From a virus: 11,964 nt of DNA. Below are positions 5,765 through 5,784 of this stretch, one piece after another. Location of the stretch: the UHGV virus genome UHGV-1565976. One strand, 5' to 3'. The position numbers and the translations under genes are program-made. Position 1 is the stretch's first letter. Every line of letters starts with the position of its first letter. The notes below the pieces were generated by a model. That model did not search any database and had not been told where the DNA came from. It saw nothing but the letters and a program-made list of their open reading frames with translations.

Positions 5765-5784
5765 GACGCGCCAGCGTCTTTTTT
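5765..5784 (+). terminator. candidate intrinsic terminator (tR1-like position)
   Basis: GACGC-gcca-GCGTC hairpin followed by TTTTTT; about 90 nt after the DUF4222-like stop and before the Rha gene. Confidence 0.4.

Follow-up and report, generated by a model that had tools for sequence, protein, structure and literature searches.

A short hairpin followed by a T-run at positions 5765-5784 (+ strand) of a stretch of virus genome UHGV-1565976 is, with high confidence, the terminator and 3′ end of an IsrK/SeqA-type small RNA (sRNA), part of an IsrK-C4 module that would control the downstream gene rha with partial read-through of the terminator. The window, meaning the whole stretch of DNA analyzed, is 11,964 nucleotides (nt) long. 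When it was scanned with Rfam at gathering thresholds, exactly two matches were obtained, isrK and C4. The isrK family (RF01394) matched 5708-5784 (+) over model positions 1-77/77 with 58.7 bits (gathering score 50, E 9.8e-11), and the C4 family (RF01695) matched 5809-5896 (+) over model positions 1-87/87 with 78.8 bits (gathering score 45, E 1.7e-14). The last helix and the U-tail of the isrK model are the hairpin and the T6 run at 5765-5784. The locus belongs to both RNA families.

The IsrK/SeqA-like RNA (77 nt) consists of two 5′ hairpins, a single-stranded linker, and the 3′ terminator. In the alignment to the isrK model, hairpin 1 pairs 5708-5714 with 5721-5727 and hairpin 2 pairs 5728-5732 with 5739-5743 (both +), and the predicted fold of 5708-5784 reproduces all three helices. 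The RNA is probably transcribed from its own sigma-70 promoter. The putative promoter lies at 5673-5701 (+), 60-90 nt ahead of the terminator, with the -35 hexamer TTGATT (5673-5678), a 17-nt spacer, and the -10 hexamer TACACT (5696-5701), which ends 7 nt before the presumed start at about G5708; the stop codon TGA (5674-5676) of the upstream DUF4222 open reading frame (ORF) falls inside the -35 hexamer. This geometry is common to Gifsy-1 isrK (TTGACA-18-TATATT), P4 PLE, a P1-like phage, and the Shiga toxin (Stx) phage F004. By analogy with the Gifsy-1 isrK promoter, which was shown by experiment (PMC4825925), the promoter would be active at this locus.

In both the window sequence and the consensus scan, the terminator reads GACGC-GCCA-GCGTC followed by TTTTTT, with a stem of 5 base pairs (bp; 5765-5769/5774-5778) containing four G-C pairs, a 4-nt loop (GCCA), and a U-tract at 5779-5784. 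The predicted free energy of the hairpin alone is -8.3 kcal/mol, and its stem pairs are predicted to form with a probability of at least 0.97 in the nascent RNA. The generic terminator motif was dropped as an argument in favor of homology: a pattern scan found 19 terminator-like sites in the window and 11.7 ± 3.0 in shuffled sequences, so that the bare motif is not significant; the stem has the shortest length that the scan allows, and the 61-nt context of the hairpin has a fold z-score of only -1.5. The site stands above chance because of homology and conservation, as it is the 3′ end of isrK and recurs in 83 of 83 modules. We regard 5765-5784 as very probably a working intrinsic terminator, and its 3′ end is probably also the Hfq-binding end, as in other Hfq-binding sRNAs. 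With 5 bp, -8.3 kcal/mol, and U6, the terminator is moderately weak; therefore, some transcripts should end here and others should read through.

Conservation of the terminator was evident at two depths of comparison. All 12 reference modules, including those of P4, a P1-like phage, and Gifsy-1, carry a hairpin of -7.5 to -9.3 kcal/mol followed by T6-T7, and direct hairpin enumeration in 83 distinct homologous modules found in every one a T5-T8 run behind a hairpin with a predicted energy between -7.4 and -10.9 kcal/mol. The stems of these 83 modules fall into six versions or more, and the variants include GACGC/GCGTC, GGCGC/GCGTC, (AA)CCGC/GCGG(TT), ACACGC/GCGTGT, and CCACGC/GCGTGG. That all of the hairpins are only modestly stable is what would be expected if the terminator is leaky by design.

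A covariance model built from the 12 reference modules retrieved 104 copies from 92 sources (67 distinct sequences), and covariation was counted on the covariance-model alignment; a MAFFT alignment set the stem register of Gifsy-1 and mEp460 off by one column. For the whole IsrK RNA, 85.6% of the cells pair across the 67 distinct sequences, compared with 34-45% in slid controls; 12 of 18 pairs have changed on both sides, and the observed covariation score was reached by 0 of 500 shuffles. The terminator helix has a CGC/GCG core that hardly varies, flanked by variable outer pairs. Because the inner pairs hardly change and double changes are few, the support for this helix comes mostly from conservation and re-registration rather than from classical covariation.

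The C4/CI-type antisense RNA (5809-5896, +), the equivalent of STnc1160, starts 24 nt past the IsrK U-run on the same strand, with a spacing equal to that in 11 other loci, and has a predicted fold of -47.8 kcal/mol. The spacer between the two RNAs (5785-5808, +) is hypervariable, with 21 of 24 columns varying among 57 relatives. The apical loop of C4, a′ (UCUCCGUUGAC, 5850-5860), is complementary to site a1 (GUCAACGG, 5749-5756), located in the IsrK linker 8 nt 5′ of the terminator stem, and its downstream target is site a2 (GUCAACGGAGG, 5932-5942), which includes the Shine-Dalgarno (SD) sequence GGAGG of rha (5938-5942). The single-stranded segment b′ (CUGCGAA, 5868-5874) is complementary to site b1 (UCGCAG, 5734-5739) in the loop of IsrK hairpin 2, and it has its own downstream target, site b2 (UUCGCAG, 5901-5907); all of these elements are on the + strand. 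The predicted duplex energies were -23.6 kcal/mol for a′/a2, -16.7 for a′/a1, -11.5 for b′/b1, and -10.5 for b′/b2. In the minimum free energy fold of the read-through RNA, a′ and a2 (11 consecutive pairs) and b′ and b2 pair in cis, which buries the rha SD.

The C4 loop and its two target sites co-vary across at least 18 specificity classes. In close relatives, the C4 loop, the IsrK linker site, and the SD-proximal site shift together in five variants; the a1 and a2 targets GTTATCGG, GATCAAGG, GCATACGG, and TCACCAAAG are found with the C4 loops CCGATAAC, CCTTGATC, CCGTATGC, and CTTTGGTGA, respectively. The sites b1 and b2 change jointly with b′ (UUGGCGU with ACGCCAA). Across 18 specificity classes, a1 co-varies with the C4 loop in most, and the longest exact complement within a module has a mean of 7.6 nt for a1 and 8.8 nt for a2, compared with about 5 nt between classes (4.9 for a2). 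Local duplexes and exact-complement counts were used for these comparisons because folding of whole-RNA C4/target duplexes was too permissive.

A break in divergence was also seen in this region: 28 of 353 compared columns vary in 5352-5707, and about half vary from ~5732 to 5950, where the variation comes as blocks that swap recognition sequences. The pattern suggests that recombination with a boundary within IsrK hairpin 2 swaps immunity specificity.

In the mechanism that we propose, transcription would start at the isrK promoter, and a fraction of the transcripts would stop at the terminator as the short 77-nt IsrK. The remainder would read through into C4 (5809-5896), the orf45-like ATG at 5813, the rha ATG at 5951, and then the replication, dam, and rusA genes. 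The C4 segments a′ and b′ would pair with a2 and b2 and hide the SD of rha. The short IsrK would carry a1 and b1 as decoy sites, through which terminated IsrK could titrate C4 and switch rha translation on.

The rha gene encodes 181 amino acids (aa) from the ATG at 5951 (5951-6496, +; Pfam Phage_pRha, E 4.5e-31), with 86 of 146 variable columns at the biased third position. Judging from sequence, it would be the regulated cargo of the module, an antirepressor-type gene ahead of the replication genes. Its first ~11 codons (MATIPTLTQPE) belong to the conserved module, and its start context GGAGGCUGCCAUCAUGGCUAC is common to P4 and P1-like modules. The conserved stretch takes in GGAGGCUGCCAU(C/U)AUGGCUAC as start context together with the opening codons (5951-5986; MATIPTLTQPE here, MATVPTPTHPE in the P1-like phage, and MATTLTPSHPE in P4), and past this start the proteins differ, being Rha, Icd/Ant, and Kil. 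The portable module seems to include the N-terminal dozen codons of any cargo.

The closest experimental parallel is Gifsy-1, where IsrK is a stable, Hfq-binding RNA of ~77 nt whose terminator shows partial read-through (PMC4825925). There, read-through from isrK makes an orf45-anrP mRNA of ~910 nt that is translationally silent and that is activated by the short IsrK in trans, coupling through orf45 has been shown, and the C4-like RNA STnc1160 is processed from the read-through transcript (PMC4825925); C4 in the window may be processed in the same way. Like Gifsy-1, the window has in order a promoter (putative here), a 77-nt IsrK with its terminator, a C4-like RNA, an SD-proximal target, and an antirepressor-type gene. 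The terminators are of similar predicted stability (-8.7 kcal/mol in Gifsy-1 and -8.3 here, with T6), and helix b-I of Gifsy-1 corresponds to the complementarity here between the hairpin 2 loop and linker of IsrK and the C4 segments. The orf45 AUG of Gifsy-1 lies in the 5′ stem of C4 at +107, and the equivalent ATG here (5813-5815, +) is at +106 of IsrK, inside the 5′ strand of the C4 stem. Whereas orf45 ends at an AUGA overlapping the anrP start, the ATG here is in frame with rha with no stop between, which makes the ORF look continuous; among 65 distinct modules, 57 likewise have this ATG in the reading frame of the ATG downstream. The recognition sequences of Gifsy-1 differ from those here, and its cargo AnrP is an ORF6N protein, whereas the cargo here is Rha (Phage_pRha).

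P4 carries the same arrangement next to its replication functions. Its seqA leader scores as isrK (60.8 bits) and its CI RNA as C4 (74.9 bits); their order matches that in the window, their spacing is similar, and the region runs PLE - seqA - t1 - CI RNA - seqC - kil ... alpha. The P4 terminator (GACGCG-CCA-CGCGTC, then T7) has a predicted energy of -8.6 kcal/mol. P4 shares the start context and the first codons MAT..T..PE, and in both systems the module precedes the replication genes, although the gene that follows is kil in P4 but rha in the window. The two also differ in that P4 is without a protein repressor and uses the RNA as its immunity factor, whereas the phage here encodes a CI-type S24 repressor as well, along with a Cro-like gene. 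The nearest named counterpart of the terminator at 5765-5784 is P4 t1. Briani et al. (2000) reportedly placed t1 between PLE and cI and described it as a Rho-independent terminator that depends on CI RNA and seqA for its efficiency.

The P4 precedent raises a tentative possibility that overlaps and is compatible with the IsrK-terminator reading, in which the site acts as a t1-type attenuator: pairing of C4 with a1 and b1 on the nascent leader would raise termination, so that C4 would be autoregulated and rha and the replication genes would be kept off in the lysogen, as a second, RNA-based immunity layer beside the CI-type repressor. The scores of the P4 seqA leader and CI RNA in the same two Rfam families and order, the placement of the module before the replication genes as in P4, and the site a1, which can pair with the C4 loop and lies 8 nt before the stem, speak for it. 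However, the stem-pair probabilities are at least 0.97 with or without a1 and b1 masked, with no competing antiterminator predicted, and in Gifsy-1 co-expression of the C4-like RNA did not lower the effect of IsrK (PMC4825925). A specific antiterminator helix, GGCG 5755-5758/CGCC 5769-5772 relieved by C4 at a1, was unsupported in the partition function, where the stem probability is at least 0.97 either way.

The third related system is that of P1 and P7, whose immI region has the order a1b1 - c4 RNA - a2b2 - icd - ant (Rfam RF01695 and RF03163 c4-a1b1); the P1-like phage RCS47 has isrK-like and C4 matches followed by ant. The c4 RNA of P1 is a two-segment antisense RNA that targets sites before and after itself, the downstream site covering the ribosome-binding site (PMC12197685). 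P1 has a separate icd between c4 and ant, whereas the regulated start here is that of rha itself, and the P1-like cargo contains ORF6N and ANT domains whereas Rha is the cargo here. The heteroimmunity of P1 and P7 is analogous to the specificity classes described above. By analogy, the control logic at this locus would be that established for P1 c4, for P4 CI RNA with seqA and seqC, and for Gifsy-1.

Several observations weigh against our reading of 5765-5784 as the IsrK terminator or limit how far the parallels carry. The putative isrK promoter agrees with the consensus at 8 of 12 positions, under the scan cut-off of 9/12, and for that reason is unlisted in the scan. Double changes are found in only 2 of the 6 pairs of the terminator helix. 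Rha has no detectable similarity to Gifsy-1 AnrP, and the Gifsy-1 module lies after antQ near the late region, whereas the module here is part of the early rightward operon and immediately precedes the replication genes; its effects on downstream genes may therefore not be those seen in Gifsy-1. Lastly, the frame in phase with rha is open over 5348-6496 in 57 of 57 close relatives, and 55 of 65 distinct modules keep it open between isrK +1 and the ATG, which leaves room for translation across both RNAs.

The genes beyond rha bear on how far the effect of the terminator could extend. Overlapping genes fill 6493-9391 (+): a small ORF, a helix-turn-helix (HTH) replication-initiator-like gene (6714-7532; Pfam HTH_36 and DnaD_N), a PerC-like gene, dam, a gene resembling the LexA DNA-binding domain, and rusA. 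The sequence-only reading had taken everything from 5951 to 9391 as one tightly coupled unit, and the ORF ends and starts bear this out, with head-to-tail overlaps at 6496/6493, 6717/6714, 7532/7529, 8023, 8676/8673, and 8999/8996. The promoter scan found no site of at least 9/12 on the + strand from the terminator to 9866, so transcripts of the PR type must cross the terminator. Because the genes overlap to 9391 and no such promoter is present up to 9866, control of the replication, dam, and rusA genes by read-through, which the same reading had proposed, is plausible, and it may entail polarity on the replication genes.

A more elaborate model, which we consider doubtful as a whole, holds that the IsrK-C4 module in the early rightward operon (the mEp460, SfV, cdtI, and Stx-phage lineage) is a P4-style RNA immunity layer over a CI/Cro switch. 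In this model, the leaky IsrK terminator and the masking of the rha ribosome-binding site by C4 would gate rha, and polarity would extend the gate to the replication, dam, and rusA genes. The frame from the ATG at 5348 would be kept open so that coupled ribosomes can override the gate: in lytic growth, ribosomes coupled from ymfL on PR-derived transcripts would cross the terminator and the C4 structures, and transcripts from the isrK promoter would stay subject to the gate.

The open frame is also the starting point for a coding explanation, in which a chance hairpin lies inside a real coding sequence (CDS) and simply encodes D-A-P-A-S-F-L of a Rha-family/antirepressor protein or of an ash protein (from ~5639). 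We consider this very unlikely. A 382-aa ORF (5348-6496, +) does pass straight through the hairpin, its ATG at 5348 overlaps the stop codon of ymfL (ATGA), and public annotations agree with one protein: the 382-aa CDS is named "Rha", "peptidase", or "antirepressor" in mEp460, phiSTEC1575-Stx2k, and Stx2a_1447, and RefSeq uses "Rha family phage regulatory protein" or else, for relatives, the pair of names "DUF4222" and "ash family protein". The Pfam family PF10554 (Phage_ASH) matches residues 117-212 of this ORF (nt 5696-5983) with E 1.3e-17 and 64.6 bits, above the gathering score.

The codon-position statistics argue against this explanation. Among 57 distinct relatives, third positions dominate the variable columns of the ymfL-like gene (21/14/79 by codon position) and of rha (28/86/32), whereas the counts are flat in isrK (11/9/14), the spacer 5785-5808 (7/7/7), C4 (14/19/13), and 5897-5950 (9/8/13). 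The region 5708-5950 is thus not evolving as protein, since the third-position excess is absent throughout it and strong in both flanking genes. In 43 distinct aligned relatives, the hairpin and T-run are kept while the peptide changes: GACGC-GCCA-GCGTC-T6 encodes DAPASFL, GGCGC-GTTA-GCGTC-T6 encodes GALASFL, and (AA)CCGC-GCTCTT-GCGG(TT)-T7 encodes TALLRFF. In-frame stops interrupt the rha-phase frame in 10 of 65 modules, and 5497-5676 is constrained in the DUF4222 frame rather than in the 382-aa frame. In Gifsy-1, orf45 is likewise conserved in nucleotide sequence and variable in amino-acid sequence (PMC4825925).

The Phage_ASH match itself appears to have another origin. The profile also matches the obsolete "cI gene product" CDS of P4 (8168-8584, -), which overlies the CI RNA gene, and for this reason the family seems to be a protein-space shadow of RNA genes. 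From the sequence comparison, the names Phage_ASH, "ash family protein", and "Icd-like" appear to denote translations of the IsrK and C4 RNA genes plus ~11 downstream codons. The public single 382-aa CDS, taken at face value, was rejected on the codon-position statistics together with the two Rfam matches.

The sequence-only reading had described the site as a terminator resembling tR1 of lambda, between a DUF4222-like ORF and rha. The hairpin with its T6 run, the identity of the upstream ORF (5497-5676; Pfam DUF4222, E 9.4e-14), and its place between that ORF and the rha start at 5951 all hold, as does the notion of a terminator, in that the site is very probably a working intrinsic one; the likeness to tR1 does not. 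In lambda, tR1 lies directly after cro, is Rho-dependent, and is suppressed by N at nutR. A gate of this type, placed after the cro module, overridden by an N-like antiterminator or acting through Rho, and timing the entry of PR transcripts into the replication genes, is hardly credible here: both sites lie in a rightward early operon upstream of replication genes, and no + strand promoter of at least 9/12 follows up to 9866, but the site here is an intrinsic hairpin with U6 at the end of an sRNA gene, two genes (the ymfL/CII-like gene at 4800-5351 and DUF4222) separate it from the Cro-like gene, and the family to which it belongs has its own promoter in Gifsy-1 and P4, which largely refutes the comparison. 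A search for boxA, which did not extend to boxB or an N protein, gave no match on the + strand or in the operon; the window has two 1-mismatch matches (2.3 expected, hence at chance level), which lie at 455 and 9811 on the - strand, beyond the operon. The identity with tR1 was accordingly rejected in favor of the 3′ end of an sRNA gene in an IsrK-C4 module, which the sequence-only reading had missed; that read-through at 5784 is regulatory is very likely.

Upstream of the module, the window contains the CI-type S24/HTH repressor gene (3757-4449, -), the Cro-like gene (4547-4807), the ymfL/CII-like gene (4800-5351), and the DUF4222 ORF (5497-5676, +), which has a GTG start, encodes 59 aa, and is the last protein gene before the RNA module. 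Just downstream of the repressor gene, a perfect 7-bp palindromic hairpin (3719-3736, both strands; AGCCACC-TTCT-GGTGGCT) is followed on the - strand by a T-rich tail and may serve to terminate transcription of the repressor. Past rusA are genes for a KilA-N protein (9542-10369), a DUF968/HNH-like protein (10371-11366), and a Q-type antiterminator (11369-11776; Phage_antitermQ, E 3e-52), which shows that the window takes in a lambdoid prophage region extending from its immunity genes as far as its late-gene regulator.

The DUF4222 ORF has an equivalent annotated by RefSeq in relatives, and 6 of the 10 variable columns of its frame are at third positions. The frame that overlaps it is that of ymfM of the K-12 e14 element ("cell division inhibitor YmfM", 112 aa, 2823-3161), which has no Pfam match and whose equivalent frame in the window is 5348-5695. 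The e14 ymfM gene overlaps a 59-codon DUF4222 ORF in another frame, with a TTG start, AAGGAG upstream, and a Pfam E-value of 2.6e-19. When the window is compared with K-12, the DUF4222 frame has 21 synonymous and 23 non-synonymous codon differences and the overlapping ymfM frame 2 and 41, so that the signature of purifying selection is in the former and not in the latter. The ymfM preprint reports cloning of the whole ORF, and a term search of it gave no match for "stop codon", "frameshift", or "start codon". The conserved product of the ymfM locus, and possibly also the effector of filamentation, may be the DUF4222 peptide.

The IsrK-C4 tandem occurs in the same order and with the same spacing in Gifsy-1, P4, P1-like RCS47 (upstream of ant), Stx2 phage F004, Salmonella phage 118970_sal3, and five E. 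coli prophage variants. In all, 211 phage records match the module. Among 5,426 complete E. coli genomes, 1,294 match a query of 5340-5960, which spans the module, and in 580 of these the match covers at least 80% of the query.

Two variant arrangements were observed. In E. coli STEC299 (1853-2381), a RelE/ParE toxin and an HTH antitoxin on the opposite strand are inserted between the DUF4222 gene and IsrK-C4-rha; a remnant of the original promoter region lies upstream, and a different promoter of the TTGACA type precedes a diverged IsrK hairpin 1. Eleven viral contigs hold multiple IsrK-like elements with differing recognition sequences (two with three copies and nine with two), 0.4-9 kb and mostly ~1 kb apart, which suggests tandem or stacked RNA-immunity modules.

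The IsrK-C4 module is already known as a kind, from the Rfam families, a mechanistic paper (PMC4825925), a report that lambdoid prophages carry a P4-like IsrK-C4 system (PMC3632133), and one GenBank record, that of F004 (LC710661), which annotates both noncoding RNAs. The traits that make the module here a variant are Rha as the cargo instead of ORF6N/ANT, the in-frame fusion of the orf45 equivalent to rha, and, as in P4, a site before the replication genes, here within the early operon. In this phage group, which includes many Stx-converting phages, most GenBank and RefSeq records hide both RNAs under a 382-aa "Rha/antirepressor/peptidase" CDS or an "ash family protein", so that readers of these records see nothing of how the antirepressor, and possibly replication, is controlled. 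The many co-varying specificity classes suggest an RNA-based heteroimmunity, which could affect prophage induction and the interference among co-resident Stx and lambdoid prophages.

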